Source: an uncultured Actinomycetota bacterium
GTDB lineage: Bacteria > Actinomycetota > Thermoleophilia > RBG-16-64-13
Direction: 5' to 3'
DNA length: 64,000 bases
NCBI GenBank assembly: GCA_963822135.1
Contig: CAWGGI010000010.1
Coordinates: 385,674 to 449,673 of the forward strand
How positions within the stretch are numbered: the first letter of the stretch is position 1; every line of letters starts with the position of its first letter. Below are positions 7,481-63,690 of this stretch, one piece after another. The position numbers were made by a program, and so were the translations under genes. The notes below the pieces were generated by a model. It saw nothing but the letters and a program-made list of their open reading frames with translations. It was not told the origin of the DNA and searched no databases.

Positions 7481-7606
7481 CGTCTCTCTGTGGTCCGAGT
7501 GGTGTGCGGCGGGCGCCTCCACCAGCCTCATCCCGCCGGGTCGAGGATACCTGTTACTATGGGGGAGTACATAATGGATAAACCACATTACCAAAGGAGG
7601 GTTGCC

Positions 7607-12157: not shown

Positions 12158-12206
12158 CGGCGCCGGGCAGACCCCGCGGCGAAGCCTTGGAGGTCGGCGA
12201 GCAGCA

Positions 12207-12237
12207 CCTTGCGCCTAAAGGTTCAAGGAGTACCATT
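12207..12237 (+). promoter_or_regulatory. weaker third copy of the CCTTG..GGTTCAA promoter-like element
   Basis: CCTTGCGC (12207-12214), CTA, AAGGTTCAAG (12218-12227). The -10 is poor (ACCATT). Confidence 0.3.
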
Positions 12238-12271
12238 AGACATATACACGACGAGCGATAGGGGAGAGACC

Positions 12272-19888: not shown

Positions 19889-19904
19889 ACCAGGGAGGAC
19901 AAGC

Positions 19905-22676: not shown

Positions 22677-22715
22677 CGATGTTCCCCCCAGGTGTTGCTT
22701 TGGATTGTTCGGCGG

Positions 22716-23701: not shown

Positions 23702-23767
23702 ACTGGCTGTACATGTGCTATCGTGGTATGACTTCCAGAACGGCCTTTTGACTGCGGGGAGGGGCCC

Positions 23768-24568: not shown

Positions 24569-25532
24569 AACGGCCCGCCAGTGGATGGTCACCCATGAGT
24601 GGATGGTCAAGCCCATGGCCCAGACCGAATGGATCGAGGGCAAAGGGCTGCTCGTCTGGCTGGCGGAGGTGTTCTCCGCCCTGGGCACCGGCCTCTATCT
24701 GGTCTCCATCTTCTTCGCGCTCAGCGAGGAGTTCGCGCTCACGGCCTTCTGGGCCGGCATCTTCGGATGGATCATGATCGCCATCTTCAAGCTGCCCCTG
24801 CATCTGGCCTACCTCGGGAAGCCTTGGCGCTTCTGGAGGAGTTTCCCGCCGTTCAGTAACGCGTGGCGGACATCCTGGTTCGCCCGGGGCATCGTGTTCA
24901 CCATGATCTTCCTGGCGTTCGCCGCCGTCCAGCTGATCCTGCAGGGCCTGATCGCCTATGAGGTGGTCTCGTTCGACTCCGGCGCCATGACCGCCAACTA
25001 CGTGTTCATGGTGCTGGCCGGCATCTTCTGCGTCATGACCGCGGTCTACTGCGGCTTCGCCATGAGTTACTGCAAGAGCGTCCCCTTCTGGAACACCGGC
25101 TTGCTTCCCATCGTGTTCCTTCTCATGGGAATCGCCGACGGCCTGGCGCTGATCATGGGCGTGGGCATGGTGACAGGGGAGGACGTGATCCCGACCGCGG
25201 AATCGGCCACCCGTATCATGCTGATCATCAACTCCCTGCTCATCGTGGCCTACCTGATCAACGCGAACTACCAGTCAGAGACCGCCGAGCTCTCGGTGAA
25301 AGAACTCATCCGTGGTCACGTGGCCTGGGTGTTCTGGCTCGGCATCGTGGTCCTTGGCATCATCGTCCCGTTCGGCATCTCGGTCGGTAGCTATTTCACC
25401 GGCGAGGAGGCCGCCACCGGGCTGCTGATCTTCGCGATCATCTGCCACACCATCGGGGCGTTCTCCCTGAAGTACGGCGTGCTCAAGGTCGGCATCTACA
25501 GACCCCTACTTCCCAAGGCTCACGCCTACTAG
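24558..25532 (+). CDS. NrfD/PsrC/DmsC-type integral membrane anchor subunit
   Basis: Polytopic hydrophobic protein (about 8-9 predicted helices by eye) placed between the FeS and catalytic subunits. Overlaps the FeS gene by 11 nt. Confidence 0.65.
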   Translation: MNARTARQWMVTHEWMVKPMAQTEWIEGKGLLVWLAEVFSALGTGLYLVSIFFALSEEFALTAFWAGIFGWIMIAIFKLPLHLAYLGKPWRFWRSFPPFSNAWRTSWFARGIVFTMIFLAFAAVQLILQGLIAYEVVSFDSGAMTANYVFMVLAGIFCVMTAVYCGFAMSYCKSVPFWNTGLLPIVFLLMGIADGLALIMGVGMVTGEDVIPTAESATRIMLIINSLLIVAYLINANYQSETAELSVKELIRGHVAWVFWLGIVVLGIIVPFGISVGSYFTGEEAATGLLIFAIICHTIGAFSLKYGVLKVGIYRPLLPKAHAY

Positions 25533-25560
25533 GCGCAGGGCACGTGCCCAAGGAGACACT

Positions 25561-33292: not shown

Positions 33293-34280
33293 TGAGACGG
33301 CGCTCCCTTCAAGGAAGTCGCCCTGCCCGTGCTTGTGATCGGCGTGCTCATACTGGTGCTTCCGATGTTTATCCCCCAGTACGTGAGCGGTCTCGTCACC
33401 AAGATGATGTACTACGGCCTCTTCGGGCTGAGCCTCAACATCATCTGGGGTTATGCCGGTATCCCCAGTTTCGGCCACGCCGCCTTCTACGGCGTGGGCG
33501 CCTACACCGCTGGAATCCTGGCGCTGAAGACGGATATCGGCAACTTCTGGGCGACCCTGGCGCTGGCCATCATCGCGACGGCAGTGGTCGCGGCGATCCT
33601 CGGGATACCTGCCTTCCGAGTGTTCGGAGTGGGCGCGGGCGCCACCAACCCCATCTATTTCCTGCTGGTCACCCTCGCGTTCGGGGAGTTGCTCTCGCGA
33701 CTCGCCATATCGGCAAGACCGGTGACCGGGGGATCGACCGGCCTGAGCGGGATCCCCGAACCGGATCTCGGCTTCGGCATAGCCGTCAACTCGCAGGAGT
33801 TACTACTATCTGGTCTTTGCCGTTTTGGTCATCTGTGCGTACCTCATCTACCGCATCGTGAACTCCCACTACGGTTACGCGCTCAGGGGTATCCACGACA
33901 ACGAACGCCGCATGCAGGCGCTGGGATACAACACCTGGCTCTACAAGTACACGTCATGGATCATCGCCGCCGTGTTCGGTGGTGTCGCCGGCGTGTTGTT
34001 CGTGTACGACAGCGGCACCCTGCTTCCCAGGAGCCTTGCCATGGCCACCAGCGACATCGCCTTCCTCCTCGTCATCATGGGGAGCACGACCGTGTTCTTC
34101 GGCCCGCTGGTGGCGTCAGTCGTGTTCGTGGGAGTCGAGTACATCGCCAGCCTCTATCTGCCGGCCCGCTGGCCACTCATCTTCGGGGCGATGTTCGTGT
34201 TCACCATCATGGTCATCCCTCAGGGGCTGGGAGTGTGGGTCCTGGGGCTGTGGAGGAGGGTCATCCGTGGCTCTGCTTGA
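33292..34280 (+). CDS. livM: LivM-type ABC permease (second system); frame changes near 33300 and 33800
   Basis: GLSLNIIWGYAGIPSFGHAAFYGVGAYT.. in ORF 33329. ..YALRGIHDNERRMQALGYNTWLYKYTSWIIAAVFGGVAG.. in ORF 33825. Confidence 0.8.
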
Positions 34281-35025
34281 GACCAGGGGGATATGGGTCC
34301 ACTTCGGGGGTCTGGCGGCGGTCAAGGATGTCAGCCTGGCCATCGAGCAGGGCGAACGGGTGGCGCTCATAGGTCCGAACGGGGCAGGCAAGACCACCTT
34401 CTTCAACGTCCTTACCGGTCAGCTGAAGCCTTCGGCAGGCTCGGTGCATTTCAAGGACGTCGATATCACCAACCATTCCGTGTTCTCCCGCGCCCACATG
34501 GGGATGGCGCGTTCGTTTCAGATCACCAGCCTCTTCCCCAACGAGACCGTTCTTGTCAACACGTTGATCGCTCTTCAGGGAACGAGGCAGGGGAGGTATG
34601 GCCTCGTCCGCTACTTCATGAAGGACAAGAAGTTGCGGAGCGACGCGCAGGAGTTGCTGGAATCCATCGATCTCTGGGACCTGAGGGAAGCTCGCGTCGG
34701 GTCGCTCGCCTACGGGCTGGCACGAAAACTCGAGATCACCCTGCCGCTGGCCAGTGAGCCGGACCTACTGTTGCTGGACGAGCCCAGCTGCGGGCTGACC
34801 ACGGTGGAGAGCGCCGACATCACCACGCGCATCCGAGCCCTCGGGTCGAAGATAACCGTCCTGATGATCGCTCACGACATGGACCTCGTGTTCGGGGTGG
34901 CCGACAGGGTCATACTCCTTCACTACGGCGAGATCGCCTGTGAGGGCACCTGCGACGAGATCCGCGCCAACCCGATGGTGAGAGAGATCTACATGGGCAA
35001 CCGCAAATCTCTCACGGGTGCATGA
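34267..35025 (+). CDS. livG: LivG-type ABC ATPase (second system)
   Basis: GTG start. LLETRGIWVHFGGLAAV, Walker A GPNGAGKTT, Walker B LLLLDEPS, end REIYMG. Confidence 0.85.
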   Translation: MALLETRGIWVHFGGLAAVKDVSLAIEQGERVALIGPNGAGKTTFFNVLTGQLKPSAGSVHFKDVDITNHSVFSRAHMGMARSFQITSLFPNETVLVNTLIALQGTRQGRYGLVRYFMKDKKLRSDAQELLESIDLWDLREARVGSLAYGLARKLEITLPLASEPDLLLLDEPSCGLTTVESADITTRIRALGSKITVLMIAHDMDLVFGVADRVILLHYGEIACEGTCDEIRANPMVREIYMGNRKSLTGA

Positions 35026-35035
35026 GGGTGCGGAC

Positions 35036-35806
35036 ATGCTAGAGATCAAAGACATCCACACGTGGTACGGGGACAGCTACATACTCCAGGGCGTCTCGCT
35101 GGAGGTGAAGGACGCGACGATCGTGACCCTGCTGGGCCGCAATGGCATGGGCAAGACCACCACCATCCGCTCCATCATGGGGCTCACACCACCGCGCAAG
35201 GGCAGCATCACGTTCAACGGAACGGAGCTCGTCGGCCTGCAGCCTCACAAGATCGCCCGCCTGGGCATCGGGCTCATACCGCAGGGCAGGCTCATCTTCT
35301 CGTCACTCTCGGTGCTCGAGAACCTCAAGATGGCCGCCCGCACCAGCGGCAAGGACGACCCGTGGACTCTTGACAAGGTGTTCACCATCTTCCCCAAACT
35401 GGCCGAACGGCGCAAGAACAAGGGGAACCTGCTGAGCGGGGGCGAGCAGCAGATGCTGACCATCGCCCGCGCGCTCATGACCAACCCCGACCTTCTGTTG
35501 TTCGACGAGCCTTCGGAGGGGCTGGCGCCGGTGGTGGTCGACGAGGTCTTCAGAGTCATCGAGCGACTCAAGGAGGCCGGTGAATCGATCCTTCTGGTGG
35601 AGCAGGACTTCGGCATGGCCATGAGCGTGGCCGACTACGCCTACATTATGAGCAAAGGGACCATCGTGTACGAATCCACGCCGGACCAATTGATCGAGAA
35701 CGAGCGGATCAAGAGCACGTACTTGGGCGTGGGGGAGAGCGAGGAAGGAGGCGACGCGCGTGTCTCGCAGGGAGAGATCGGCAAAGCAGAGTATGAAGGG
35801 GGATAG
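35036..35806 (+). CDS. livF: LivF-type ABC ATPase (second system)
   Basis: MLEIKDIHTWYG, GRNGMGKTT, LSGGEQQMLTIARAL, LLLFDEPS. Confidence 0.85.
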   Translation: MLEIKDIHTWYGDSYILQGVSLEVKDATIVTLLGRNGMGKTTTIRSIMGLTPPRKGSITFNGTELVGLQPHKIARLGIGLIPQGRLIFSSLSVLENLKMAARTSGKDDPWTLDKVFTIFPKLAERRKNKGNLLSGGEQQMLTIARALMTNPDLLLFDEPSEGLAPVVVDEVFRVIERLKEAGESILLVEQDFGMAMSVADYAYIMSKGTIVYESTPDQLIENERIKSTYLGVGESEEGGDARVSQGEIGKAEYEGG

Positions 35807-35825
35807 CGTGACAAAGGGGGAGAAG

Positions 35826-37083
35826 ATGAACAGGAGACTACTACTGATCGTGCTACTCGCACTGATGGTAGGCGTGTCGGCTGCGTTGGTGGCATGCGGA
35901 GATGAATCGACCGAGACGACGGCGACCACGGCCGGCGGGACCGAGACCACCGCGACGAACGGAGCAGCCACCGGCGAGCCCATCAAGTTCGGCTTCAACG
36001 AGGGCTTCACGGAGTTCATGGCCTACGACTGCGAGCTGGCCGACAAGGGCGTCAAAGACGCTCTCGACATGCTCGGCAACCAGTGGAACGGGCGGCCGCT
36101 CGAGTACTATCCCGGAGGACAACGCCTCCAATCCCGAGATCGCGGTGCAGAAGGCCGAGAAGCTGGTCGAGAGCGACAAGATCAACGTCATGATCGGCCC
36201 GATCTTCTCGCCATCGGCGAAGGCAGTCGACCGACTACCTCGGCAAGTCGTCGGGCATCCCGCAGATCTCGATCGTGGGTCAGCCGGCGGAGAACTTGGA
36301 GACCGCCAACGGGCTTGCCTTCATCCACACCGGGTTCTTCGACTCGCACGGGTACTACTTCGGGAAGTACCTTGCGGAGAAGGGCTTCAAGACCGCCAAT
36401 GTCATCAACTATGACGACACACCCGCCTATGCCCTGACGGCGGGCTTCAAGAAGGCCTTCGTCGACGAGGGTGGCGGACAGGTGCTGAGCGAGAACTACG
36501 TCGACATAACCGCGGTCGACTTCAGCGCCTATCTGTCGGCCATGAAACCGGCCGATGTCACGGTGAACTGGATCTTCGGCAACGGCGCTGTGCCCTTCGT
36601 CAAGCAGTACAAGGACTACGGGCTCACAGCTCCCCTGGCAACGACCATGTCGAACAACTTCAGCGATGCGCAGCTGGCCGAACTGGGCGATATCTCGCTG
36701 GGTATGCTCGCCTGCGACTACTATGCGTACACCATCGACAACCCGCTGAACAAGGAGTTCGTCGCCGCCTACGAGAAGGTCTACCCGGGGGAAAAACCCA
36801 CTCCGCAGGGCTACGGTGCCTGGCAAGGCGTCATGATGTACCTGAAGGGACTGGAGGCCACCGGTGGCGACACGACGCCGGCCAAGGTGATCGAGGCCAT
36901 GTCGAACATGACCTTCGACAGCCCGGCCGGGCAAGGTGACAATCGTTCCCTACAAGAATGCCTTCGTAGGCAAGCGCGACTTCTTCATGCTCGAGGTACA
37001 GAAGGTCGGCGACGTATGGACCTGGGTCCCGTTAAGACGTACGAGCAGGTGCTGCTGGGCGACCTGGGGCCATCGGGCAGTAG
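35826..37083 (+). CDS. LivK-family substrate-binding lipoprotein (second system); at least 4 frame changes, 3' end uncertain
   Basis: Signal peptide plus lipobox (SAALVAC), Thr-rich linker, then PIKFGFNEG... Pieces lie in ORFs 35760, 35902, 36275 and 36936. ..VKTYEQV is near the end. Confidence 0.75.
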
Positions 37084-37201: not shown

Positions 37202-38020
37202 CTACTTGGCCAGCGCTATGTCGCCCAGGTTGACGTCATCTTCAGTGCTGATCGCGTCGATGCTCTTGGTCGCGAAGCCGGGAGCGGCGATCGTGAGGCT
37301 GTAAGTGCCCCCGCCGGCCAGACCCCGGAACCAGAAGTCGCCGAAGCCATCGGTAGTGGTGGAGCAGGTGGCACCGTCCGCGCCGGTGAGCGTCAGGGTG
37401 GCGCCCTCGACGATCTCCTTGTCGGCGGGGTCGTACACCGTGCCGGCGATGAACTTCTTGGGTATGTTCAGGTAGTACACCCGCGGCTTGGCGCCGCTCT
37501 CGGGCAGGAGCACCTCAGCCTTGGCGATCTCGGCTGCGAAATCGGCTTCCTCGCCGAACTTGATGGCCTCGGTGGGGCAGGCGTCGGCGCAGCGTGGGAT
37601 CTTCCACTCGCCGCCGTCCAGAAGGTGAGCGCATCCCGTGCACTTCTGAGCGAGGTTGAGATCGTCGTTGAAGTAGATCGCCTTGTACGGACAGGAGTCG
37701 ACGCAGTTTCTGCACCCCGTGCACTTGTCGGTGTCGATGATCACCAGGCCGTCGTCGCGCTTGTAGATCGCCCCCTCGATGGGGCAGGCCGGGATGCAGG
37801 GAGCGTCGTCACAATGCATGCACGGGTTGGGGACATAGTGCATCTCCACCTTGGGCACCGTGCCGCGGATGTGCTCGTCGAGTCTCATCCAGAACTGGCC
37901 CGTATCGGGCTGGGGCTTGGCGATCGGCGACCAGTCGTTACCGACGTGCTCGTCCTTGCAGACGAACTGGCAGGCATAGCAGCCTACGCACAGATCGACA
38001 TCTATCACGAAGACCTTCAT
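37202..38020 (-). CDS. pyrogallol-hydroxytransferase-type small (beta, FeS) subunit with a C-terminal beta-sandwich domain (pair 1)
   Basis: Intact 272 aa. CVGCYACQFVC, CMHCDDAPCIPACP, CTGCRNCVDSCP, CTGC..CADACP. The last 80 or so aa (37202-37453), GTVYD..TDGFGDFWFRGL..YSLTI, look carboxypeptidase-regulatory/Ig-like. Confidence 0.8.
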   Translation of the reverse strand: MKVFVIDVDLCVGCYACQFVCKDEHVGNDWSPIAKPQPDTGQFWMRLDEHIRGTVPKVEMHYVPNPCMHCDDAPCIPACPIEGAIYKRDDGLVIIDTDKCTGCRNCVDSCPYKAIYFNDDLNLAQKCTGCAHLLDGGEWKIPRCADACPTEAIKFGEEADFAAEIAKAEVLLPESGAKPRVYYLNIPKKFIAGTVYDPADKEIVEGATLTLTGADGATCSTTTDGFGDFWFRGLAGGGTYSLTIAAPGFATKSIDAISTEDDVNLGDIALAK

Positions 38021-38027
38021 CTATGCC

Positions 38028-40670
38028 CTACCTTTCCTCGATCCAGGCGTCGAAGCGCAGGCCGGCACCTGGGTCGTATTCCCGGGCGAAGGCCTCGGGG
38101 TAGTCCCTACGCCACTCTTCCCATTCCTCGTTCTTGACTTTCTGCACGTCGACCAGATAGCCGCTGGTGGCCTGGCCGCAGCAGTTCTTGGAGGTGAGTC
38201 CGTTCGGGGCGATGGTGTTGATCGCCCCGCCGCGGTCGACCTTGCCGGGAACCAGCGGGTCGTGCCGGGAACCGTGGTCGACGTACACCACTCCCGGCCG
38301 GATGCGCTCCCAGACCCGGGCGCCCACGAGCACGATGCCACGCTCGTTGAACACTTTGACGACGTCGCCGTGCTTGATGCCGCGTGCCGCCGCGTCGATG
38401 GGGTTGATCCAGATGGGCTCATACTTGTACCCGTCGAAACCGAGCACCTTGCCGGTCGGGGTCTCACGCGCCCAGCTGATGTCGTCGCCCTGGGCGTGCG
38501 TGCGCCAGCGCGGGTGGTTTGACACGATGAGCAGCGGGAACATCCCTGCCCGCTCGCTCGATAGAGCTTCGTCGTGAGTGACGCCCTTCTCCACCCACTT
38601 CGGGATCGGCGGCCGCTCGTGGTCGTCGGGGAAGTGCTGATGTAGGCGCTCCGAGTAGAACTCCAGCAGGCCGCTGGGGGTCTTGAGCGGGTTGGTCTTG
38701 GGGTCGTCGTAGAAGAGGCGGAACCCGGGCGGGTCGTCTTCCCAGTCGGTGGCCGTCTTGTAGACGTAGGTCTTCTTCTCGTAGAAGTCTTCCCAGCTGG
38801 TCAGCTTGTCCATCTTCATGGCGTCGAAGACGATCTTCTGCAGGTCCCTGGTGGACATGCCCCCGGTGAACTCGTCGCCGTAGCCCAGCTTCTCGGCGAT
38901 GGCGGCGACGATCTCATAGTCGCTCTTGGATTCGCCGATGGGCTTGATGGACTGCTCCTGGATGGACACGCTCGCGAAGTGCGGGCCCTGGCGGACCGTC
39001 GTCACGATGTCCTCCACCTCGAGGGTGGTGTTCGCCGGGAGGATGATGTCGGCGTAGAGACAGTCGTTCTCGAGCCACGGGTGCTGGGCCACGACGCACT
39101 CGATGCTGTCGTGCTTCATCGCCTCGATGGTCCAGTTGCCGTGGTTCCAACAGGTGATCCGGCACGGGGTGTCGGTCCAGATCATGTGGATGGGCACGCC
39201 GCCCTTGTCCTTGGCGATGGGGTACGTGTAACGGTCGAACTGCTCCTCGGTCTGGCACTCCTGACCGCCACTGCCGTGGAAGACCAGCGGGGGCTTGAGG
39301 ATGGCGTCCTGGATGAGCGTCTTGGGGATGAGCTGCGGTCCCCACGCATGGACCGTGGTCCAGCAAGGCTTGGTGAGGCGTTCGGGGAGCTCGGGGTTGA
39401 AGAAGCGGACGCTTCCCAGGCCCTCGGCCCTCGGCATGCCGAAATAGGTCATCTGGCACTGGTGGACGCCTGGGCCGCCCAGGCCCTGCATCCCCAGCAT
39501 GACGCATTCGAGCCGGCCAGGCTCGTGCGAGTACGGGCCCCGGAAGGCCGAGCCGCCGAAGTAGTGGACGATCGAGGTGGTGTTCTTGGCGAACTGGCGG
39601 GCGAGAGCCTTGATGGTCCACTCAGGCACGCCGCATTTCTTGGAAGCCCACTCCGGCGTCTTGGGGATGCCTTCTTCGTCCTCGCCCAGGACATAGGCTG
39701 CCACCTTGTCCATGCCCACTGCGTGGGTGGCGACGTACTCCTTGTCCCAGGTGCCCTCTTTCAGCCATACATAGATGACAGCGAGCTGGAGGGCGGCGTC
39801 GGTGTTGGGCAGTACCGGGATCCACTTGTCGGCGTGGACGGCGGCCGCGTAGTTCAGGTCCGGGCAGATGTAGACCTGCTTGATGCCCGCCCGCGTCCAG
39901 AACTGCGAGATGCGGCTGGCGTATTGGCCGGTGAAGCCCCACGGGGTGGTCTCCTCGTCGCAGCCCCACTTGAGCACCATGTCGGCGTGCTCGGAGATGT
40001 CTTTGATGAGGTTGGCCGCCGGCGACATCATGCCCTGGAAGCCCTGGCCCCATACATGCTTGGCGCCCCAATACCAGCCTTCCCAGCTATCGGGGTTACG
40101 GACCTGCTGGGTGAAACCGCCCATCATGTCCAGCAGGCGGGCCTGATGGCCATGCGGCGTATGGATGGTCTTGTTCTCGCCGTGACCGTCCCCCTGCGCC
40201 AGGATGGCGAGGGGACCGTATTCTTTGTGGATACGGGTGATCTCGGTGGCGATGATGTCGGTGGCCTCGTCCCAGGAGATGCGCACATACTTGCTCTTGC
40301 CCCGGTTCTGGGGGTTGCGCTCGCCATTGGGATCCCAGTCCACGCGCTTCATGGGGAACTTGATCCGGTTGGGCGACAACGTCCGCTTCTTGTAGGCCAG
40401 GGAGAACGGCGCCGGTAGCGCCTTGGGCAGCGGATGCAGCTCCTCGCCGTTGCGCTTGATGGTCCACGGTCGGAGCGACTGAAAGTCGTACTTCCAGTCG
40501 TACTTGTAGGGCCTGATCCTGACGGCCTTGCCGTCCTTGACGTCGACGAAACACTCGCCGCCTCCGCCGAGCAGGCCCCCCATGGCCAGGTTCTTTATGG
40601 TCACATTGTCGACGCTTACGTCGACCTTCTTGCGCTTCTCGTCCGCCATATCGATCGTCGTCCTTTCCAT
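38028..40670 (-). CDS. pyrogallol-hydroxytransferase-like large (alpha, bis-MGD) subunit, divergent member (pair 1)
   Basis: Intact; Met at 40670 preferred. No N-terminal Cys cluster and no Tat signal. KFPMKRVDWDPNGERNPQNRGKSKYVRISWDEA, NPDSWEGWYWG, and C-terminal YPLLIVSNHPRWRTH, GGAINTI. Confidence 0.75.
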   Translation of the reverse strand: MERTTIDMADEKRKKVDVSVDNVTIKNLAMGGLLGGGGECFVDVKDGKAVRIRPYKYDWKYDFQSLRPWTIKRNGEELHPLPKALPAPFSLAYKKRTLSPNRIKFPMKRVDWDPNGERNPQNRGKSKYVRISWDEATDIIATEITRIHKEYGPLAILAQGDGHGENKTIHTPHGHQARLLDMMGGFTQQVRNPDSWEGWYWGAKHVWGQGFQGMMSPAANLIKDISEHADMVLKWGCDEETTPWGFTGQYASRISQFWTRAGIKQVYICPDLNYAAAVHADKWIPVLPNTDAALQLAVIYVWLKEGTWDKEYVATHAVGMDKVAAYVLGEDEEGIPKTPEWASKKCGVPEWTIKALARQFAKNTTSIVHYFGGSAFRGPYSHEPGRLECVMLGMQGLGGPGVHQCQMTYFGMPRAEGLGSVRFFNPELPERLTKPCWTTVHAWGPQLIPKTLIQDAILKPPLVFHGSGGQECQTEEQFDRYTYPIAKDKGGVPIHMIWTDTPCRITCWNHGNWTIEAMKHDSIECVVAQHPWLENDCLYADIILPANTTLEVEDIVTTVRQGPHFASVSIQEQSIKPIGESKSDYEIVAAIAEKLGYGDEFTGGMSTRDLQKIVFDAMKMDKLTSWEDFYEKKTYVYKTATDWEDDPPGFRLFYDDPKTNPLKTPSGLLEFYSERLHQHFPDDHERPPIPKWVEKGVTHDEALSSERAGMFPLLIVSNHPRWRTHAQGDDISWARETPTGKVLGFDGYKYEPIWINPIDAAARGIKHGDVVKVFNERGIVLVGARVWERIRPGVVYVDHGSRHDPLVPGKVDRGGAINTIAPNGLTSKNCCGQATSGYLVDVQKVKNEEWEEWRRDYPEAFAREYDPGAGLRFDAWIEER

Positions 40671-40794
40671 GCGTTTGCCCGACCGACTGTCACTTCTCGT
40701 GAATGGAGCCCACTCCCATTGTGTGAAGCCATCCCCCCTTTGTCTGGTGTCACTATCCGGCAGTCGTATGGGGACCCGCGTTCCCCCTGGTCCG

Positions 40795-41592
40795 CTAGGG
40801 TTTGCCTGGATTCCAGCCCAGATACGCCGAGAACGACGCAGCCGCCCTCGTGACGGCGTCTGCACAGACCAGGCGTTCCGCCGGGCCGAAGCGTCCGGTG
40901 GGCACTACCACGGAGATGGCCGCGGCTATGGCTCCCAATTGGTCGCGCACCGGCGCACCCACGGCACAGGTGCCCAGGTAGATGCCCTCGATGTCGTACG
41001 CGACACCCTCCCGAGCCACCGTCTCCAACTCGGCGGCCAGCGCGGTCCTGTCGGTCACCGAGTACGGGGTGTGTTTGATATGGAGCTGGTCCAGCAGGGC
41101 CTCCCGCTCCTCGGGCGGCCGGAAAGCCGCGAAGAGCTTTCCGTGGACCGAGACCAGGTCGCCCAGGATCCGTCCCGGCGCCGTGCGACGCTTGAACGGC
41201 CGATTGGTGTTGATGATGTCCACACACACCGGGAAGCCGTCGATCTCCACCGCCAGAGTGACCGATTCTCCTGTCTCTTTGGTGAGAGCCTCGAGGAAGG
41301 GTCGCGCCGCTTCGACGAGGGCCGAGTGGTCTTCGGAGACATACGTCATTGCGAGAGTCGCCGGTCCGAGTCGGTAGCGGCTGGTGCCGGGATCGCGCAC
41401 GAGAAAGGCCATGGACTCGAGGGTGCGCACCATGCGGTAGGCTGTCATCCGCAGGAGGCCGGTCTGCTCGGCCATCTCGTCGATGGTCCACTCCCGATGG
41501 TCCACGTCGAACAGCCCGAGGATGGACAGCCCCCGTGCGAGCGCTCTCACTGAAAACGGGTCGGTTTCCCGGGATTCCTTCGTCGCTGCCAT
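40795..41592 (-). CDS. IclR-family transcriptional regulator (IclR-2), paralogue of 22716..23537
   Basis: VRALARGLSILGLF..WTIDEMAEQTGLLRMTAYRMVRTLE... More than half the positions are identical to IclR-1 by eye, including the HTH. Confidence 0.85.
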   Translation of the reverse strand: MAATKESRETDPFSVRALARGLSILGLFDVDHREWTIDEMAEQTGLLRMTAYRMVRTLESMAFLVRDPGTSRYRLGPATLAMTYVSEDHSALVEAARPFLEALTKETGESVTLAVEIDGFPVCVDIINTNRPFKRRTAPGRILGDLVSVHGKLFAAFRPPEEREALLDQLHIKHTPYSVTDRTALAAELETVAREGVAYDIEGIYLGTCAVGAPVRDQLGAIAAAISVVVPTGRFGPAERLVCADAVTRAAASFSAYLGWNPGKP

Positions 41593-41682
41593 GCGCCCCC
41601 AGTCGGCGTCGCGTGTTGCCTAGCCCCCCGTGCCTTGCAAATCGCCATAGGCTACCCTACGATACTAGCAATATTATTCAAC

Positions 41683-41694
41683 AATATCGAGATA
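41683..41694. promoter_or_regulatory. 12-nt motif shared with 23690..23701, inside an AT-rich island (about 41661-41700)
   Basis: AATATCGAGATA, followed by TCGTAT. The surrounding GATACTAGCAATATTATTCAACAATATCGAGATATCGTATT is strikingly AT-rich for this genome. Confidence 0.4.
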
Positions 41695-41746
41695 TCGTAT
41701 TGGAGCAGGCCGGTAACAACCTTCGATTTCCGGAGGACGATGATTG

Positions 41747-44298
41747 ATGGCTGAAAAAGTGTTCGCGAACTGCACGAACAGCGGTCCCGTCTCAGTCTAC
41801 GTCAAAGACGGGAAGATCGTGAGGGTCCGCCCTCTGGTCGTGGCCGACGGCGACATGAAGCCCTGGACCATCGAGGCGGGGGGCAAGAAGTACTCCCCCT
41901 GGAAGAAGTGCACCCTCTCGCCCTACATCCACGCCGAACGCCGGCGCATCTACTCCGACGAGCGTATCAAGTACCCGATGAAACGGGTCGACTTCGATCC
42001 GGCCGGCGCTCCCGGCTCCACCGGCCCGGGCGGGCGTAATGCTCAGAACCGGGGCAAGTCGCGTTACGAGCGCATATCCTGGGATGAAGCCTCCGACCTT
42101 GTGGCCGCAGAACTCACGCGGGTCAAGGACACTTACGGCGGCTCGGCCATCAGCGGGATAACTTCGTCACATCACAACTGGGGCATCGTGGGCTACAAGA
42201 TGGGTCCCTTCGCCCGCTTCATGAACATGATGGAGTTCACCCCGGTCCTCGACAACCCGGACAGCTGGGAAGGTTGGCACTGGGGCGCGTCGCACACCTA
42301 CGGCTTCTTCTGGCGCCTGGGCATGCCCGAGCCCTACGACATGCTGGGCGACGCTCTCCAGAACGCCGAGATGATCGTGTACTGGTCCAACGACCCCGAC
42401 AGCACGCGGGGCACCTACTCCGGCCAGGATTCGGCTCTCTGGCGGCAGTGGCTCAAGGAGAAGGGCGTCAAGATGGTCTTCATCGACCCCTTCTACAACT
42501 ACACCAACGCGGTCATGGGCGGCAAATGGATCGCCCCGCGCATGGGCACCGACACGGCCATCGCCATGGCCATCGCTTTCGTCTGGATCACCGAAGACAC
42601 ATATAACAAGGACTACGTCGCCAACCGCACCATCGGCTTCGAGAAGTTCAAGCCCTACGTTCTGGGCGAGACCGACGGCGTGCCCAAGACTCCGGAGTGG
42701 GCCGAGGCCGAGTCCGGAGTCGACGCCCGCACCATCCGCACGCTGGCCCGGGAGTGGGCGGCCAAGCGGACAGTGCTGTCGGGCGGCTCTCGCGGGGGAG
42801 AAGGCGGCGCCTGCCGCACCGCGTACGGCACCGAATGGGCCCGCATGATGGTGCTGCTGCAGGCCATGCAGGGGTTGGGTGCTCCCGGCCGCAGTATCTG
42901 GGGCACCACGATGGGCGCTCCCATGGACTGCGCTCCCTGGGTTCCCCAGCTACGGCGAGCCCGAAGGGCGCATCTCCATGGCCACGAGAGTCGCAAAATA
43001 CATCCCCCAGAACCCCACCAAGCAGCGCCTGTGGCGGCTGACGGTCCCCGAGGCCATCCTCAACGGCCACGACGAGTGGTACGGCGACGGCTTCTGCGGC
43101 AAGTCGCTCGAACAGCAGTTCCTGCACTACGTCTATCCGGCGGAGGGCTGTTCCGAGATCAAGCTCTGGTACCGGTACGGCGGCTCGTTCATCGGCACCA
43201 TGAGCGAGACCAACAACTGGGTGCGGATGTACCAGAGCCCCAAACTGGAGTTCGTCGTCAACCAGGACATCTGGTGGCAGAGCGAGACCCGCATGGCCGA
43301 CGTCATCCTGCCGGCCTGCACCAACTTCGAACGCGACGACCTGGGGGAATGGGCGGCCATCAACGGCTATACGGTGCACGCCTCGAGCGGCTGCAACTAC
43401 CGCGTGGTCGTGCGTGAGCAGAAGTGCATCGAGCCCCTGTGGGAGTCCAAGTCCGACTACGAGATCTTCGCCCTCATCGCCCAGAAGATGGGCCTGCGCG
43501 ACGAGTACACCGACGGCGGCAAGACCGACGTCGACTGGGTCAAGGGCTTCTTCGACATCTCCGACCTGCCCAAGATGACCACCTGGGAGGAGTTCAACGA
43601 GAAGGGCTACCAGATCATCAACACCGGAGAAGACTACAAGCCCACGCCGGCGTCTGCGCTGGTTCTACGAAGGCCGGCCGTGCGACACGCCCGACCTGGG
43701 TAACCCCAAACGCCTCACCGAGCGGCGGGGCGAGCTGGGCACCTTCAGCGGCAAGATCGAGTTCGAATCGGTGAGCCTCAAGCAGTACTTCCCCGATGAC
43801 GACGAGCGACCCGTGGTGCCGCGCTACATCCCCAGCTGGGAGGGGCATCACACCACGGAGCTCTTCGAGAAGTACCCGCTGGCGCTGATGTCACCGCATC
43901 CGCGCATGTCGTTCCACTGCCACTACGACAAACACACCGACTGGCTCAACGACATCCCCGTGCATCGCATCAAGAAGGACGGCTATCCGTGGTGGCCGGC
44001 CCGTCTCAGCCCCGAGGACGCGACCAAGCGGGGCATCAACAACAACGATATCGTCCGGCTCTACAACGATCGCGGCTCGGTGCTCTGCATCGCTGTCGTC
44101 ACCCCTCGTGTGCGGCCCGGCGTCATCCATAGCTATGCCTCTTCGGCGCTCTACGATCCACTGCAGCCGGGAGATCCGACGTCCATCGACAAGGGCGGGT
44201 GCGTCAGCATCCTCACCCCGGCCCGGATGATGTCGAAGAACGTCCCCGGCATGACGCCGAATTCCTGCCTCATCGAGATCGAGAAATGGGAGGGCTAG
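41747..44298 (+). CDS. pyrogallol-hydroxytransferase-family large (alpha) subunit (pair 2); frame changes near 42940 and 43650
   Basis: NSGPVSVYVKDGKIVRVRPL, IKYPMKRVDFDP, GITSSHHNWGIVGY, DNPDSWEGWHWG, ILPACTNFERDD, LRWFYEGRPCDTPD, YPLALMSPHPRMSFH, GGCVSILTP, IEIEKWEG. No Cys cluster, no Tat signal. Confidence 0.8.
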
Positions 44299-44302
44299 AG
44301 AC

Positions 44303-45139
44303 ATGGCACGCCTCGGTCTGCTCATAGACGTCACCAAGTGCAGCGGCTGCCATAACTGCTTCCTGGCCTGCCGCGACGAGTACTACGACAACGACTACAG
44401 CCCCTACTCGGCTCCCCAGCCGCTCGACGGCCAGTTCTGGATGCAGGTCAAGGAGATCGAGCGAGGCACCTATCCCAAGCCCAAGCTCGACTACATCCCT
44501 CTGCCGTGCCTGCACTGCGAGGACGCGCCCTGCATCGACGTGGCGGCCGACAACGCCGTCTATCGCCGCGCGGACGGCTTTGTGATCATCGACCCGGTCA
44601 AGGCCAAAGACCAGAAGGCCATCGTCAACGCCTGTCCGTATCGGGTGGTGTTCTGGAACAAGGAGCTCGAGATCCCGCAGAAGTGCACCATGTGCGCTCA
44701 CCGGCTCGACGAGGGCGAAAAGCAGCCGCGCTGCGTGGAGGCGTGTCCCACCGGCGCTCTGGCCTTCGGCGACCTGGATGATGCTGCCAGCGAGATATCG
44801 CGGCTGGTGGCGGCGAAAAACATCGAGGCCTACCATCCCGAATTCGGCACCAAGCCCACGGTGATGTACGTGGGCATCCCCAAACGTTTCGTGGCGGGCG
44901 AAGTGGTCCGCGACGATGTGCGGGGCGAATGTGCCGAGGGCGTGTCGATCACCCTCGATGGCGGGGGCGTCAAGCTGGAGACCAAGACCGACAGCTACGG
45001 CGACTTCGAGTTCGAAGGCCTGGAGAAGAACACTGCGTACACCGTGAAGGTGCAGCTTGCAGGCTACGCGCCGCGGGTGTTCGAGCTCACGACGCATACC
45101 GATGTCAATCTGGGTGAGATAGTTCTACAGCGGGCGTGA
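44303..45139 (+). CDS. pyrogallol-hydroxytransferase-type small (beta, FeS) subunit with a C-terminal beta-sandwich domain (pair 2)
   Basis: Intact 278 aa. CSGCHNCFLAC, CLHCEDAPC, ..ACPYRV.., CTMC..CVEACP. C-terminal domain (44888-45139) TDSYGDFEFEGL..YTVKV. Confidence 0.8.
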   Translation: MARLGLLIDVTKCSGCHNCFLACRDEYYDNDYSPYSAPQPLDGQFWMQVKEIERGTYPKPKLDYIPLPCLHCEDAPCIDVAADNAVYRRADGFVIIDPVKAKDQKAIVNACPYRVVFWNKELEIPQKCTMCAHRLDEGEKQPRCVEACPTGALAFGDLDDAASEISRLVAAKNIEAYHPEFGTKPTVMYVGIPKRFVAGEVVRDDVRGECAEGVSITLDGGGVKLETKTDSYGDFEFEGLEKNTAYTVKVQLAGYAPRVFELTTHTDVNLGEIVLQRA

Positions 45140-45158: not shown

Positions 45159-46353
45159 GTGAACGAAGTCGTCATCGTCAGCGCGGTCCGGACGGCCGGC
45201 GGCAGGATCGGCGGCGGTCTGAGAGACGTGCAGCCGGAGGAGCTCGCCCGAGTCGTCATCGAGGCGGCCATCCGGCGGGCCGGCGTGGAGCCGGAGGCGA
45301 TCGACGAAGTGATCATGGGGCAGGCCAAGCAGAGCGCCGATGCGGCCAACCTGGCGCGTGTCGCCGCGCTTCGAGCGGGCCTGCCTGTGGAAGTGCCTGC
45401 CTACACGGTGATGCGCCAGTGCGGCTCGGGTCTGCAGGCGGTCAACAACGGGGCCCAAGCCATAATGACCGGTTTGGCCGACATCGTCGTGGCCGGCGGC
45501 ACAGAGAGCATGAGCAACGCTCCCTATTATTTGAGGGGAGCGCGATTCGGATATCGGTCGGGCAACGCCCTCTTGGTCGATTCCAACACCGAGAGCCAAC
45601 CCCGGTCTCAGCCGTACGAGATCTACGGGAACCTCACCATGGGCCTGACCGCCGAGAACGTGGCTGCCGACGTACGGCATCACCAGGCAGGAACAGGATC
45701 GGTTCGCTCTGGCCAGTCAGGAGAAGGCCCTGGCTGCGATCGCGGCGGGAAGGTTCGCCGACGAGATCGTCCCGGTGGAGGTGCCCCAGCAGAAGGGTCC
45801 TCCGCTGACCTTCGCCATCGACGAGCACCCGCGGGAGACCAGCCTGGAACGGTTGGCCGAGTTGCCCGCCATCTTCAAGGAGGGCGGCACGGTCACAGCC
45901 GGCAACTCCTCCGGACGCAACGACGGCGCCGCCTGTCTGGTCCTCATGTCCGCGGGCGAGGCGCGCAGGCGCGGCCTCGCCCCGCTCGCCGTCATCCGTG
46001 GCCAGGCGGTGGCAGGGGTCCCTCCCGAGATCATGGGCATCGGTCCGGTGCCGGCCAGCCGCAAAGCGCTGGCCGCGGCGGGCTTGACGCTCGCCGAGGT
46101 GGAGCTGATCGAACTGAACGAGGCCTTCGCGGCCCAAAGTCTCGCGGTGATCAAGGAGCTCGGCCTCGACGAGTCGCGGGTGAACGTGAACGGCGGGGCC
46201 ATCGCGCTGGGGCATCCCCTGGGGTGTTCGGGCGCGCGTATCCTCACCACGTTGCTCCACGAGATGAAGAGGCGGGGTACCCGCTACGGCCTGGCTACGC
46301 TCTGCATCGCCGGAGGGCAGGGGATCGCCACCGTGGTCGAGGCGGCCGGCTAA
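45159..46353 (+). CDS. acetyl-CoA C-acetyltransferase (thiolase II); frame change near 45670
   Basis: [22 protein letters not shown] (active-site Cys), [30 protein letters not shown]. Confidence 0.85.
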
Positions 46354-48420: not shown

Positions 48421-49137
48421 CTACGGAGCCAGCGAGATGCGCGGGCTGTCCGCGGTGAGATAGTCGATCCGGCTGACCCCGCCGCAGAAGCGGTCGACCA
48501 ATTCCACCACCTCGCCACAGGCCGTCTCGATCTCCTGGCGCGTGACGGGTGGCAGTCCGTCCACGTTGAACTCTATAGCTGTGGTCTCGGGAAGCGTCAG
48601 CGTGTGGTTCGCCTGCCGCCAGGTCCAGCGGCGGGTGAGCACCGTGTCACCCTCCACGAAGACCACTTCACCCGGTAGAGGGTGTTCCACCTCTTCCGAC
48701 CCGAAGGCGACGAACTCCTCAGCGCCGGTGGCGAACCTCAGCTCGATGTCGCCGTTCAAGAGGTCGATGGCGTGCCCGCCCGCCGGGATGAGGTGTCGAA
48801 GGGAGATGACGTTGCCGATGTCCACCAGAGCGCTGATAGCCGGCAGTTCGTCGCCGCGCAGCGCGCGACGGGCCATCGCCTCCACCGAGGACCTGAACTC
48901 GGCGGGCTTGGCGCCAAAGGCGCGGTAGGCGTCGCGCCAGGCTTTGATGCGCGGCTCCTCGGCTATCTGCTCCAAGCTCACCCGGGCGCGCACGGAGGCC
49001 TCGGCCTCTCGAAGCATCGCTACCAGCTCGGTGGGAGAGGGGCCGTTCCTGACCTCGTGAGCCACGACGACGCCCCGGATGTATCCGGGAAAGCGGACGA
49101 ACACGTCCGGAGAGATGCTGTAGCTATAGTGCTGCAT
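48421..49137 (-). CDS. B3/B4 (PheRS-beta-like) domain protein
   Basis: FPGYIRGVVVAHEVRN.., IKAWRDAYRAFGAKPAEFRSSVEAMARR.., VDIGNVISLRHLIPAGGHAID, and TRRWTWRQ match the COG3382-type B3/4 family. Confidence 0.65.
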   Translation of the reverse strand: MQHYSYSISPDVFVRFPGYIRGVVVAHEVRNGPSPTELVAMLREAEASVRARVSLEQIAEEPRIKAWRDAYRAFGAKPAEFRSSVEAMARRALRGDELPAISALVDIGNVISLRHLIPAGGHAIDLLNGDIELRFATGAEEFVAFGSEEVEHPLPGEVVFVEGDTVLTRRWTWRQANHTLTLPETTAIEFNVDGLPPVTRQEIETACGEVVELVDRFCGGVSRIDYLTADSPRISLAP

Positions 49138-49263: not shown

Positions 49264-50577
49264 ATGCGCATCGAGGTACCCTGGAGTACGGGCAGCACGG
49301 TCGTGGAGGTGGACGAGCGCCGGGTGGCCGGCGTGCTGGGCGCCAACGTGGAGACGGCGGTCGATCCGGAAGGGGTGCTGCGCACGGCGCTCGCCGGAGA
49401 GGCGCGGACGGGACCGGCTAACGGGGCATCCGGGGAGGGCCTCGAGGGATTCCTGAGCGTGGCGCGATCGCCGCTGCTGGTGGTGGTCAACGACGCGACC
49501 CGTCCCACCCCCTCGGCGGACGTTCTCAGGGTCCTACGCCCCGGGCTCGAACGATGGCTGGGGGGCGGCCGCGATCGCGTCCTCTCCTTCGCTGTGGCCA
49601 CGGGCACCCACCGGGCAGCGCTTCCCCAGGAGTTGGAGCGTATCTTCGGGGCCGACTTCCTCGCCGCCCACAGCCGGCGCGTGATCTCTCATGACGCGAA
49701 GGACGGCTCTCGACTCGTCACCCTCGGGCGGACGCGGCGGGGCACCGAGATCCGAGTGAACGCGTTGTTGGCGGAAGCTGGAAGCGTGATCCTGATCAAC
49801 TCGGTGGAGCCTCATTACTTCGCAGGCTACACGGGAGGCCGCAAGTCCCTCTTCCCGGGGCTGGCCGGATACGACACCGTCTGGGCCAACCATGCCTTGT
49901 CCATGAAGCCCGGCTCCGAAAGCCTTGCGCTCACGGGCAACCCCGTCCACGAAGACCTGGAGGATGCGCTCACCGTGGGCGTCGCCGGCCGGCAGGTCTA
50001 CTCCATCCAACTGGTCCTGGACAAGGAGCACCGGATCGGCTTCGCGGCGGCGGGCGCTTTGGACGAGACCTTCCGCCGTGCGGTGGAGGTGGCCGACCGC
50101 CAGTTCGTGCTCGACATCGCCCGGCGCTGCGAGGTGGTGGTCGCGGCTGCGCCGCACCCGATGGACTGCAATTTCTACCAGACCAACAAGGCCATCCAGA
50201 GCGGAGCGCTCGCCGTCAGGGACGGGGGCATCCTCATCGTGGTGTCGGAATGCCCCTTCGGCCTGGGGGAGAACCAGACCCTCTACGACATGCTCGCGGC
50301 CGCCGATTCACCGGCCCAGGCTCTTGAGCGCGCGGACCTGGAGGAGTACCGGCTGGGGGTCCAGCAGGCCACCCGCGTCGCGGGCATCCTGCAGCGCGCG
50401 CAGATCTGGGCGGTCACGGCACTGCCCGCGGCGCAGATCGAGGCCATGTTCATGAGACCGTTCGCCACCCTGCAGGCCGCGGTGGATGCTGCCCTTGCCG
50501 CCCAGGGCTCCGGGGCGCAGGTCCTCTTCCTGCAGGAGGCCAGCATCACCGTGCCCCGGCCGAGAAGCGTCGGGTAG
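49264..50577 (+). CDS. LarA-like (nickel-pincer lactate racemase family / DUF2088) protein
   Basis: VVVNDATRPTP, ATGTHR, NSVEPHYFAGYTGGRKSLFPG and GNPVHED are LarA N-domain hallmarks. Confidence 0.7.
   Translation: MRIEVPWSTGSTVVEVDERRVAGVLGANVETAVDPEGVLRTALAGEARTGPANGASGEGLEGFLSVARSPLLVVVNDATRPTPSADVLRVLRPGLERWLGGGRDRVLSFAVATGTHRAALPQELERIFGADFLAAHSRRVISHDAKDGSRLVTLGRTRRGTEIRVNALLAEAGSVILINSVEPHYFAGYTGGRKSLFPGLAGYDTVWANHALSMKPGSESLALTGNPVHEDLEDALTVGVAGRQVYSIQLVLDKEHRIGFAAAGALDETFRRAVEVADRQFVLDIARRCEVVVAAAPHPMDCNFYQTNKAIQSGALAVRDGGILIVVSECPFGLGENQTLYDMLAAADSPAQALERADLEEYRLGVQQATRVAGILQRAQIWAVTALPAAQIEAMFMRPFATLQAAVDAALAAQGSGAQVLFLQEASITVPRPRSVG

Positions 50578-55573: not shown

Positions 55574-63690
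<8,117 letters not shown>

Follow-up and report, generated by a model that had tools for sequence, protein, structure and literature searches.

Two kinds of transhydroxylase-family molybdenum enzyme beside one IclR regulator in an uncultured Thermoleophilia-like actinobacterium

Introduction

Pyrogallol-phloroglucinol transhydroxylase is a molybdenum (Mo) enzyme which lets anaerobes degrade tannin-derived trihydroxybenzenes, and how tannins and other polyphenols are broken down without oxygen matters for the storage of carbon in peat, soils and sediments. To our knowledge the family has only one solved structure and very few of its members have been assayed. Here we describe two alpha/beta enzyme pairs that lie head to head around an IclR-family regulator in a 64,000-nucleotide stretch of DNA (hereafter the window; contig CAWGGI010000010.1 of assembly GCA_963822135.1) from an uncultured Thermoleophilia-like actinobacterium, a soil or sediment genome, and compare them with the transhydroxylase of Pelobacter acidigallici (AthL/BthL, PDB 4V4C). 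All four subunits belong to the family of this enzyme. Judged by their sequences, the two pairs are different kinds and not duplicates: pair 1 (alpha1 and beta1) appears to represent a large variant clade which has no characterised member and a different predicted electron wiring, and pair 2 (alpha2 and beta2) a sister clade of the known enzyme.

Two other two-subunit enzymes, resorcinol hydroxylase (RhLS) of Azoarcus (Aromatoleum) anaerobium and 3,5-dihydroxybenzoate hydroxylase (DbhLS) of Thauera aromatica AR-1, carry out net redox hydroxylation of phenols, and were compared here by description only. Their gene clusters carry hydroxyhydroquinone-oxidising enzymes, and LysR regulators occur in such clusters as an alternative to sigma-54 control. 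Sigma-54 control there involves the regulators RedR1/2 (PMC10084136). Neither sigma-54 or LysR regulators nor hydroxyhydroquinone-oxidising enzymes were found among the Pfam-annotated genes of the window. RhL and PgtL have been placed in one family in which Ser coordinates the Mo (Wells et al. 2023, PMC10100899). The catechol dehydroxylases of gut actinobacteria (Dadh, Cldh, Hcdh and others) also act on aromatic-ring hydroxyls and belong to the same bis(molybdopterin guanine dinucleotide), or dimethyl sulfoxide (DMSO) reductase, superfamily, in which they cluster beside acetylene hydratase and away from transhydroxylase (Maini Rekdal et al. 2020, PMC7028382).

Findings of the same kind as ours have come from subsurface uncultured bacteria. 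The Chloroflexi genomes RBG-2 and RBG-1351 hold two transhydroxylase operons each, from which pyrogallol fermentation was inferred (Hug et al. 2013, PMC3971608), and a single cell of the Dehalococcoidia, DEH-C11, holds three copies (Wasmund et al. 2016). In the accessible parts of these two reports all copies are treated as pyrogallol transhydroxylases, two clades are not separated, and there is no mention of beta subunits with 16 or 12 cysteines or of a head-to-head module of two types with an IclR regulator. A first reading of the window (the original prediction) had proposed an uncharacterised anaerobic pathway for phenols or hydroxy-aromatics; the description is justified, although Chloroflexi genomes with two operons of this kind each were already on record (PMC3971608).

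Results and discussion

Both enzyme pairs fall in the transhydroxylase family

The original prediction had likened both pairs to AthL/BthL, and a phmmer search against all PDB sequences bore this out, with match E values of 1e-54 to 1e-267, far above chance. The top match of alpha2 was 4v4c_A (890 bits, residues 7–849; DMSO reductase 270 bits), as was that of alpha1 (425 bits, residues 36–851; DMSO reductase 248 bits). DMSO and trimethylamine N-oxide (TMAO) reductases scored about 250–270 bits against both alphas, and formate dehydrogenase, nitrate reductase and acetylene hydratase less than 95 bits, so that neither alpha was drawn to these well-characterised non-aromatic clades. Both betas matched 4v4c_B best, beta2 with 214 bits and an alignment reaching residue 257, into the C-terminal domain, and beta1 with 187 bits over residues 4–268. 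The AhtL-like first domain (PF21423) was recognised in alpha1 (32.7 bits, cut-off 27) and is among the precomputed domains of P0121, the metagenome protein equivalent to alpha2.

Like the Pelobacter enzyme, both pairs would be two-subunit cytoplasmic enzymes with a Mo-bis(pyranopterin guanine dinucleotide) cofactor (Mo-bisPGD), a Ser ligand within an Asp-Ser-Trp motif, His144, no N-terminal iron–sulfur (Fe-S) cluster, no twin-arginine translocation (Tat) signal, and a beta subunit that joins a ferredoxin part to a transthyretin-like domain. The lack of an N-terminal Cys cluster and of a Tat signal, remarked upon in the original prediction, was confirmed on three counts: Molybdop_Fe4S4 (PF04879) had no match in alpha1 or in the precomputed domains of alpha2, no such cluster appeared in the alignment of alpha1 and alpha2, and neither N-terminus carried a twin-arginine motif. 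The unrelated Mo enzyme at 25471–27783 does carry Molybdop_Fe4S4.

The betas had been described as Cys-rich ferredoxins with an extra C-terminal domain, and this description stands: the motifs DGFGDFWFRGL and DSYGDFEFEGL are present, and CarboxypepD_reg was detected at the two C-termini with 58.6 and 38.3 bits (Pfam cut-off 32.3). Modelled by AlphaFold from 31 sequences, beta1 had a mean predicted local distance difference test score (pLDDT) of 88, with residues ~189–269 all beta-strand at pLDDT >90, as expected for a folded beta-sandwich. The best Foldseek match of the model was 4v4c_B (E 1e-27, template modelling score 0.73), and the last domain alone matched transthyretin-like domains.

It is very improbable that the pairs are S- or N-oxide reductases of the DMSO, TMAO or biotin sulfoxide type, although the names given by the Joint Genome Institute (JGI) pipeline say so and the best NCBIfam models for the alphas are bisC_fam, dmsA_ynfE and TorA. 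These models scored 277–355 bits, far under their cut-offs of 778–1465, and NCBIfam has no model for the transhydroxylase family, hence the misleading JGI names. The Pelobacter enzyme outscores every S- or N-oxide reductase structure by far; moreover DorA, TorA and BisC lack the BthL-type beta which both pairs possess, and the Tat signal is absent. The catechol dehydroxylases, which the original prediction named as relatives, are so at the level of the superfamily but not more closely, given their published phylogeny (PMC7028382) and the 49–50 bits of acetylene hydratase (2e7z) against the alphas, compared with 425–890 bits for transhydroxylase. Acetylene hydratase is the nearest relative of neither alpha, and the N-terminal Fe-S cluster of catechol dehydroxylases is missing from both.

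The alpha subunits represent two deeply separated types

Alpha2 and the Pelobacter enzyme share 47.8% identity, alpha1 and the Pelobacter enzyme 35.5%, and alpha1 and alpha2 35.4%; the paralogues are thus as divergent as had been supposed. In a neighbour-joining (NJ) tree, the only tree method used (787 columns, 100 bootstraps, rooted on Cereibacter TorA/DorA), both alphas grouped with the Pelobacter enzyme. Alpha2 lay in a subclade with proteins of Desulfobacter, Acidobacteria and Actinobacteria (type 2), which is sister to the transhydroxylase subclade and united with it at 100% bootstrap, and alpha1 fell in a separate deep clade (type 1). Type 1 is populous, spanning Thermoleophilia, Dehalococcoidia, Desulfobacterota, sulfate reducers and some gut Firmicutes, and many genomes hold several copies. 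The best matches of alpha1 (120 clusters, 68–90% identity) came from metagenome-assembled genomes of Thermoleophilia, Dehalococcoidales and RBG Chloroflexi, with RBG Chloroflexi proteins among the closest (P0026 and P0059; L015, one of the loci to which we gave L numbers). Those of alpha2 came from Actinobacteria, Acidobacteria, Desulfobacter and Desulfococcaceae.

The pockets of the two types were compared across 119 type-1 and 120 type-2 homologues in Pelobacter numbering. His144, Asp174, Ser175, Trp176 and Arg359 are invariant in both; the Asp174-Ser175-Trp176 motif and His144 would be the Mo-ligand and catalytic residues, as Messerschmidt et al. 2004 reportedly describe for the Pelobacter enzyme. 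Type 2 keeps His145, Tyr152, Cys358, Tyr404, Phe468 and Tyr560, whereas type 1 has Gly, Thr, Val/Ile/Phe, Leu, Gly/Ala and a deletion at these positions, respectively. Position Arg153 is an invariant Lys in type 2 and Pro in type 1, and position Trp354 an invariant Glu in type 2 and deleted in type 1. Alpha2 accordingly has His144, His145, Tyr152, Asp174, Ser175, Trp176, Tyr404, Phe468 and Tyr560; it departs from the Pelobacter enzyme in Lys153 and Glu354, in lacking a ~20-residue insertion after Tyr404, and in standing beside and not inside the transhydroxylase subclade. Alpha1 retains Asp-Ser-Trp and His144 but has Thr152, Pro153, Leu404 and Gly468, with Tyr560 and Trp354 deleted. Type 1 is further marked by an N-terminal insert rich in Gly and by a C-terminal extension, conserved and ~35 residues long; both are common to the window and Desulfobacter.

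Tandem type-1 alphas in two to four copies were seen in nine loci (L035, L038, L039, L046, L050, L056, L075, L085 and L086), some of them as alpha-alpha-beta operons with one shared beta gene; L086 combines four type-1-like alphas with a transhydroxylase-like gene (63% identical). These tandem copies point to expansion for different substrates.

A third, transhydroxylase-like clade joins the Pelobacter subclade in the NJ tree and is of no help in assigning function. A plasmid search revealed it on megaplasmids of Burkholderia and Rhizobium. It is represented by L090, on the Burkholderia stagnalis plasmid NZ_CP156687 (457464–475971), with further matches in replicons of Rhizobium, Sinorhizobium, Cupriavidus and Paraburkholderia, all aerobic or facultative soil bacteria. 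The L090 alpha has 992 amino acids (aa) with an N-terminal extension of ~130 aa, its beta lacks most cluster cysteines, and the genes near it encode a VOC-family protein, a fumarylacetoacetate hydrolase, an acyl-CoA synthetase and a major facilitator superfamily transporter.

The beta subunits differ in their predicted Fe-S clusters

A 4+3+1+4 pattern of 12 cysteines is common to BthL, beta2 and all type-2 betas of the fetched loci, and two betas like that of the Pelobacter transhydroxylase have 12 and 11. In the 12-Cys betas the third CxxCxxC group is missing, as is the fourth Cys of group II. Beta1, on the other hand, has all 16 cysteines (four groups of CCCC), as do 120 of the 120 database homologues closest to it and the majority of type-1 betas from the genome loci; in a minority of type-1 betas the second Cys of group III is replaced by His, Ala or Asn, with nothing else changed. 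Beta2, which shares the 12 cysteines of the three-cluster BthL, is therefore predicted to bind three [4Fe-4S] clusters, and beta1, which does not, four.

The extra four cysteines of beta1 are presumably ligands of the distal cluster FS4, by analogy with the four-cluster subunits DmsB, NarH and PsrB. In four-cluster subunits FS4 passes electrons to a partner. The His, Ala and Asn variants resemble the natural [3Fe-4S] FS4 of NarH. Outside the family the nearest relatives of the betas are PsrB/NrfC and ArrB, which are four-cluster proteins, and we infer that type 1 may keep an ancestral electron wiring that was lost in the transhydroxylase lineage. The original prediction was silent on these differences in clusters and pockets between the pairs.

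Three loci, L064, L081 and L084 (Peptococcaceae, Oscillospiraceae and Syntrophomonadaceae), combine type-1-like alphas (52–57% identical) with 12-Cys betas, which means either that the fourth cluster was lost more than once or that these sequences are an intermediate group. The source of the never-sequenced Eubacterium oxidoreducens isomerase may be among gut and rumen Firmicutes of this sort.

Both types occur together as a module in several phyla

Desulfobacter (CP054837) likewise has a head-to-head arrangement of the two pairs, as orthologues with 67% and 76% identity, surrounded by a GntR regulator, two cyclase-family genes, a cupin, a short-chain dehydrogenase, an ADP-forming acyl-CoA synthetase, an enoyl-CoA hydratase, a DUF35-thiolase pair, a tripartite ATP-independent periplasmic (TRAP) transporter and molybdenum-cofactor genes. 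Since dihydrophloroglucinol cyclohydrolase is a cyclase-family protein and phloroglucinol reductase a short-chain dehydrogenase (PMC10470551), this cluster looks like a route from trihydroxybenzenes to acetyl-CoA.

Nearer relatives of the window conserve the arrangement further. The 271-kb contig L008 has the same order of MoaF, ATP-binding cassette (ABC) transporter with binding protein, beta1-alpha1, IclR and alpha2-beta2-thiolase, continuing as the window does with sucCD, B3/4, LarA-like and OsmC genes and then ribosomal and nusG genes. Two other Thermoleophilia-like loci, L010 and L011, keep beta1-alpha1, IclR, alpha2-beta2-thiolase, B3/4 and LarA-like, with sucCD absent from the conserved order. 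In the place of the ABC system L011 has a TRAP transporter and L010 unrelated genes with no transporter.

This retention of each type beside the other in Actinomycetota and Desulfobacterota argues for distinct roles, and makes it improbable that the pairs are redundant isoenzymes for the same pyrogallol-to-phloroglucinol reaction. Such redundancy would agree with the label of pyrogallol hydroxytransferase that metagenome papers give to all genes of this kind and with 4V4C being the best match of both pairs, but the pairs are only 35% identical, and the pocket residues and cluster count are invariant and type-specific across more than 100 sequences.

A genome scan with one genome per species yielded 80 type-1 loci, all from uncultured organisms; the counts that follow refer to the fetched flank. 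At least two type-1 alphas were present in 11 of the 80, a type-2 or transhydroxylase-like alpha lay nearby in 11 (7 of the 35 loci of at least 15 kb), and TRAP binding proteins, IclR regulators and cyclase-family genes were found in 11, 9 and 6, respectively. The context was highly variable in unsupervised clustering of neighbours, with only TRAP transporters, IclR, cyclase, dehydrogenase and thiolase genes recurring, each in 11 loci or fewer. L046 has the order IclR, alpha1, a second type-1 alpha, beta1, LuxR, two cyclases, dehydrogenase and 3-hydroxyacyl-CoA dehydrogenase, with no type 2, and in L083 a thiolase, a 3-hydroxyacyl-CoA dehydrogenase, a dehydrogenase and a cyclase adjoin a type-1-like alpha. 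The association of type 1 with type 2 and with phloroglucinol-pathway-like genes is thus recurrent, but neither universal nor obligatory.

Proposed roles of the two pairs

Our preferred reading, held with moderate confidence, is that pair 2 is a transhydroxylase-like enzyme and pair 1 a net-redox enzyme of a sister clade feeding the same route, under IclR control. The locus would then encode two distinct cytoplasmic Mo/Fe-S heterodimers controlled by the regulator between them. Pair 2, which shares with the Pelobacter enzyme the 12-Cys pattern, Tyr152, Tyr404, Phe468 and Tyr560 that pair 1 lacks, would most likely move a hydroxyl between polyhydroxybenzenes without net redox change, for example from pyrogallol to phloroglucinol; the argument is its retention of the Ser-Mo ligand, His144, Asp174, Tyr404, Tyr560 and a three-cluster beta. 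Pair 1 would belong to an older sister clade that differs from the Pelobacter enzyme in its rebuilt substrate pocket (no Tyr404, Tyr560 or Trp354), its C-terminal extension and its 16-Cys beta, which keeps cysteines for a distal fourth [4Fe-4S] cluster of the sort that passes electrons to a partner in related enzymes. Chiefly on the basis of these FS4 cysteines, and of the rebuilt pocket, pair 1 most likely catalyses a net redox reaction that adds a hydroxyl to a related phenolic or removes one, according to the direction in which electrons would flow, and its product would enter the same route as that of pair 2. This is the kind of chemistry described for RhLS and DbhLS.

A wider version of this proposal, in which type 1 as a whole is the redox-active branch, is tentative: a four-cluster phenol hydroxylase or reductive dehydroxylase might work with the three-cluster type-2 transhydroxylase from Actinomycetota to Desulfobacterota. 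Type 1 could make or consume the tetrahydroxybenzene co-substrate or, alternatively, convert hydroxyhydroquinone, resorcinol or a transporter-imported hydroxybenzoate into the transhydroxylase substrate, and in anoxic soils and sediments diverse polyphenols would thereby be channelled towards phloroglucinol degradation.

Sequential transhydroxylation, with both pairs redox-neutral, differing in regiospecificity and acting in turn, seems unlikely to us. It draws on the common family and Mo-site residues of the two pairs, on the conservation of the two-type module in several phyla and on the physiology of Pelobacter massiliensis, which reportedly converts hydroxyhydroquinone to pyrogallol and on to phloroglucinol. 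Type 1, however, lacks Tyr404 and Tyr560, both of which type 2 shares with the Pelobacter enzyme, its predicted fourth cluster would be superfluous in a redox-neutral enzyme, and it also occurs alone beside cyclase and dehydrogenase genes (L037 and L046).

Several points weigh against our preferred reading of a net-redox pair 1 feeding the route of a transhydroxylase-like pair 2. The 64-kb window contains no cyclase-family (dihydrophloroglucinol cyclohydrolase-like) gene, and PDB searches for phloroglucinol reductase with the short-chain dehydrogenases of the window and of Desulfobacter returned many near-equal matches and no identification, the dehydrogenase of the window being indistinguishable from generic ones; a complete phloroglucinol pathway in the window was therefore rejected. 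No gene for an electron-transfer partner adjoins pair 1. No type-2 gene lies nearby in 69 of the 80 type-1 loci, and in Chloroflexi the closest type-1 operons have housekeeping genes (FtsH, MetRS and MoaE) around them. The fourth cluster of beta1 could be an unused ancestral relic, and even the three clusters of the Pelobacter enzyme are not known to have a defined role. Tyr404, Tyr560, Tyr152, Arg153, Trp354 and Phe468 are putative active-site residues, which Messerschmidt et al. 2004 reportedly describe. Finally, in the literature we found no paper that separates type 1 from type 2 or characterises or assays either.

Metagenome studies usually give one name, "pyrogallol hydroxytransferase", to genes of at least two ancient types, which differ in their substrate pockets and in the electron wiring predicted for them. 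If there is a division of labour between the types, annotation as it stands both assigns pyrogallol use too often and overlooks a new reaction. The locus also supplies candidates for the hydroxyhydroquinone transhydroxylations that lack genes and for the source of the tetrahydroxybenzene co-substrate.

Frameshifts in alpha2 are assembly errors

The five genes of the two pairs and their regulator were all found where the original prediction had placed them (Table 1). Alpha2, however, is not a single open frame but reads in three successive frames, shifting to frame +1 after ~residue 400 and to frame +2 after ~residue 635; the original prediction said nothing of these breaks being artefacts. An exact-protein look-up of beta2 led to six short Illumina-type metagenome contigs, 98–99% identical to the window, in which alpha2 and the downstream thiolase are uninterrupted. 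Base-by-base comparison showed single extra bases in the window at 42942, 43652, 45670 and 46779, which are the exact frame breaks of alpha2, the thiolase and sucC. The insertions at ~42942 and ~43652 are absent from L002–L004 (~98% identical, Illumina) and from L008. Repaired alpha2 (849 aa) is identical to the intact P0121 (BLASTP, 100% identity over 100% of the length). For the thiolase, Thiolase_N covers only residues 4–172 in the window because of the spurious base at ~45670, and L002 and L004 have an unbroken copy of 397 aa.

Breaks of the same kind affect rpoB, rpoC, the thiolase, sucC, a solute-binding protein, an ABC permease and a short-chain dehydrogenase at 7415–8367, and indel-affected stretches include 33300–34300, 35793–37078, 56467–59399 and 59403 onward. 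The window appears to be an indel-rich, unpolished assembly, probably of long-read origin, and several of its relatives have long-read-style contig names; as single-base indels occur throughout, apparent pseudogenes in the window are to be distrusted. We give next to no credence to alpha2 being a genuine pseudogene, with pair 1 alone functional in the organism: two frameshifts and an in-frame stop are what would suggest it, but both shifts are single inserted bases missing from independent contigs, an intact protein exists, and rpoB and other genes are broken alike. A pseudogene was therefore ruled out. In L008 sucC also lies in two reading frames (14605–15757), at a site other than that of the break in the window, hence the L008 assembly has indel errors too.

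Regulator and divergent promoter region

IclR-2, the regulator between the pairs, matched PF09339 (39.9 bits) and PF01614 (91.9 bits) above cut-off, and its best NCBIfam model was the PcaR/PcaU/PobR subfamily, under cut-off. It is 61% identical to IclR-1 (22719–23474, minus strand), and its place between the pairs is kept in L008, L010 and L011. Together with the IclR genes in other type-1 loci, this shows that the association of an IclR regulator with this enzyme type, first noted in the window, recurs in other genomes.

The intergenic region between IclR-2 and alpha2 has an AT-rich core at ~41630–41705, CTTGCAAAT...CTACGATACTAGCAATATTA...CAATATCGAGATATCG, in a window of ~65% guanine plus cytosine (GC). 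This core is conserved in L008, L010 and L011, whose alpha and beta proteins are 74–93% identical to those of the window. An imperfect inverted repeat spans 41651–41664 and 41693–41706, and a GGAGGA ribosome-binding site lies 9 nucleotides (nt) 5' of the alpha2 ATG. The core is a plausible shared promoter/operator, on which IclR-2 would act to control both pairs.

Neighbouring genes

Table 1. Coordinates of the two enzyme pairs, their regulator and selected neighbours in the window
Feature	Position	Strand	Description
3-hydroxyacyl-CoA dehydrogenase	18944–19885	plus	Pfam 3HCDH_N/3HCDH
Short-chain dehydrogenase	19938–20708	plus	Pfam adh_short
beta1, Fe-S subunit of pair 1 (type 1)	37202–38020	minus	272 aa; Pfam Fer4_11 + CarboxypepD_reg; best PDB match 4v4c_B
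alpha1, Mo-bisPGD catalytic subunit of pair 1 (type 1)	38028–40649	minus	873 aa; Pfam Molybdopterin, Molydop_binding, AhtL-like_1st
IclR-2 regulator	40795–41592	minus	Upstream of alpha1 on the same strand, divergent from alpha2; HTH_IclR + IclR_C
Divergent intergenic region	41593–41746		Candidate promoter/operator; AT-rich core
alpha2, Mo-bisPGD catalytic subunit of pair 2 (type 2)	41747–44298	plus	849 aa once 2 spurious bases are deleted
beta2, Fe-S subunit of pair 2	44303–45139	plus	278 aa; Fer4_11 + CarboxypepD_reg; 4v4c_B match
beta-ketothiolase	45159–46353	plus	20 nt 3' of beta2; Thiolase_N; TIGR01930 476 bits, above cut-off
B3/4-domain protein	48421–49137	minus	Pfam B3_4
LarA-family protein	49264–50577	plus	Pfam Lar_N + LarA_C; 284 bits against 500, under every NCBIfam cut-off

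Homologues of alpha1 begin at its Met-8, the start used in Table 1, with an alternative start at 40670. Of the thiolase/CoA-ligase operon in the original prediction, the thiolase held up, travelling with pair 2 in that it adjoins beta2 in L008, L010 and L011, and it is probably co-transcribed with beta2. A pathway-specific CoA ligase was rejected: SucD is canonical by NCBIfam (417 bits against an equivalog cut-off of 336 for succinate-CoA ligase), sucCD is not syntenic in L010 and L011, and these genes are probably housekeeping. Nor is the importer dependent on a solute-binding protein, which had been named as a linked neighbour, conserved, given the different genes in its place in L010 and L011. 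The B3/4 and LarA-like (nickel-pincer racemase-like) proteins are syntenic with both pairs in four Thermoleophilia-like genomes (the window, L008, L010 and L011), and whether they are members of the two-pair system is uncertain.

The two dehydrogenases at 18944–20708 are possible lower-pathway genes. They lie 17 kb from the pairs in the window, and their orthologues adjoin the type-1 pair in L011, L012, L046 and L083, being much nearer pair 1 in L011 and L012. The short-chain dehydrogenase is 45% identical to that of the Desulfobacter cluster.

A third molybdopterin enzyme with an N-terminal Fe4S4 domain is encoded at 23732–27783 (plus strand) in the order B-C-A, which is unusual and polysulfide-reductase-like: the molybdopterin subunit comes last, after a ferredoxin subunit with four clusters and a membrane anchor of the NrfD type. 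Close by are IclR-1 and an aldehyde:ferredoxin oxidoreductase (20811–22715, minus strand). In L012, a locus from Thermoleophilia, an 85%-identical orthologue of the enzyme lies directly beside the type-1 pair; the enzyme could serve as a quinone-linked electron partner, or be unrelated.

Two ADP-forming acyl-CoA synthetases (ATP-grasp_5 + CoA_binding + Succ_CoA_lig) lie at 77–1735 and 12158–13865, 30–38% identical to that of the Desulfobacter cluster. With a second Liv-type ABC system, a GntR regulator and 2-oxoacid:ferredoxin oxidoreductase genes near them, this region of the genome is rich in anaerobic acid-catabolic functions.

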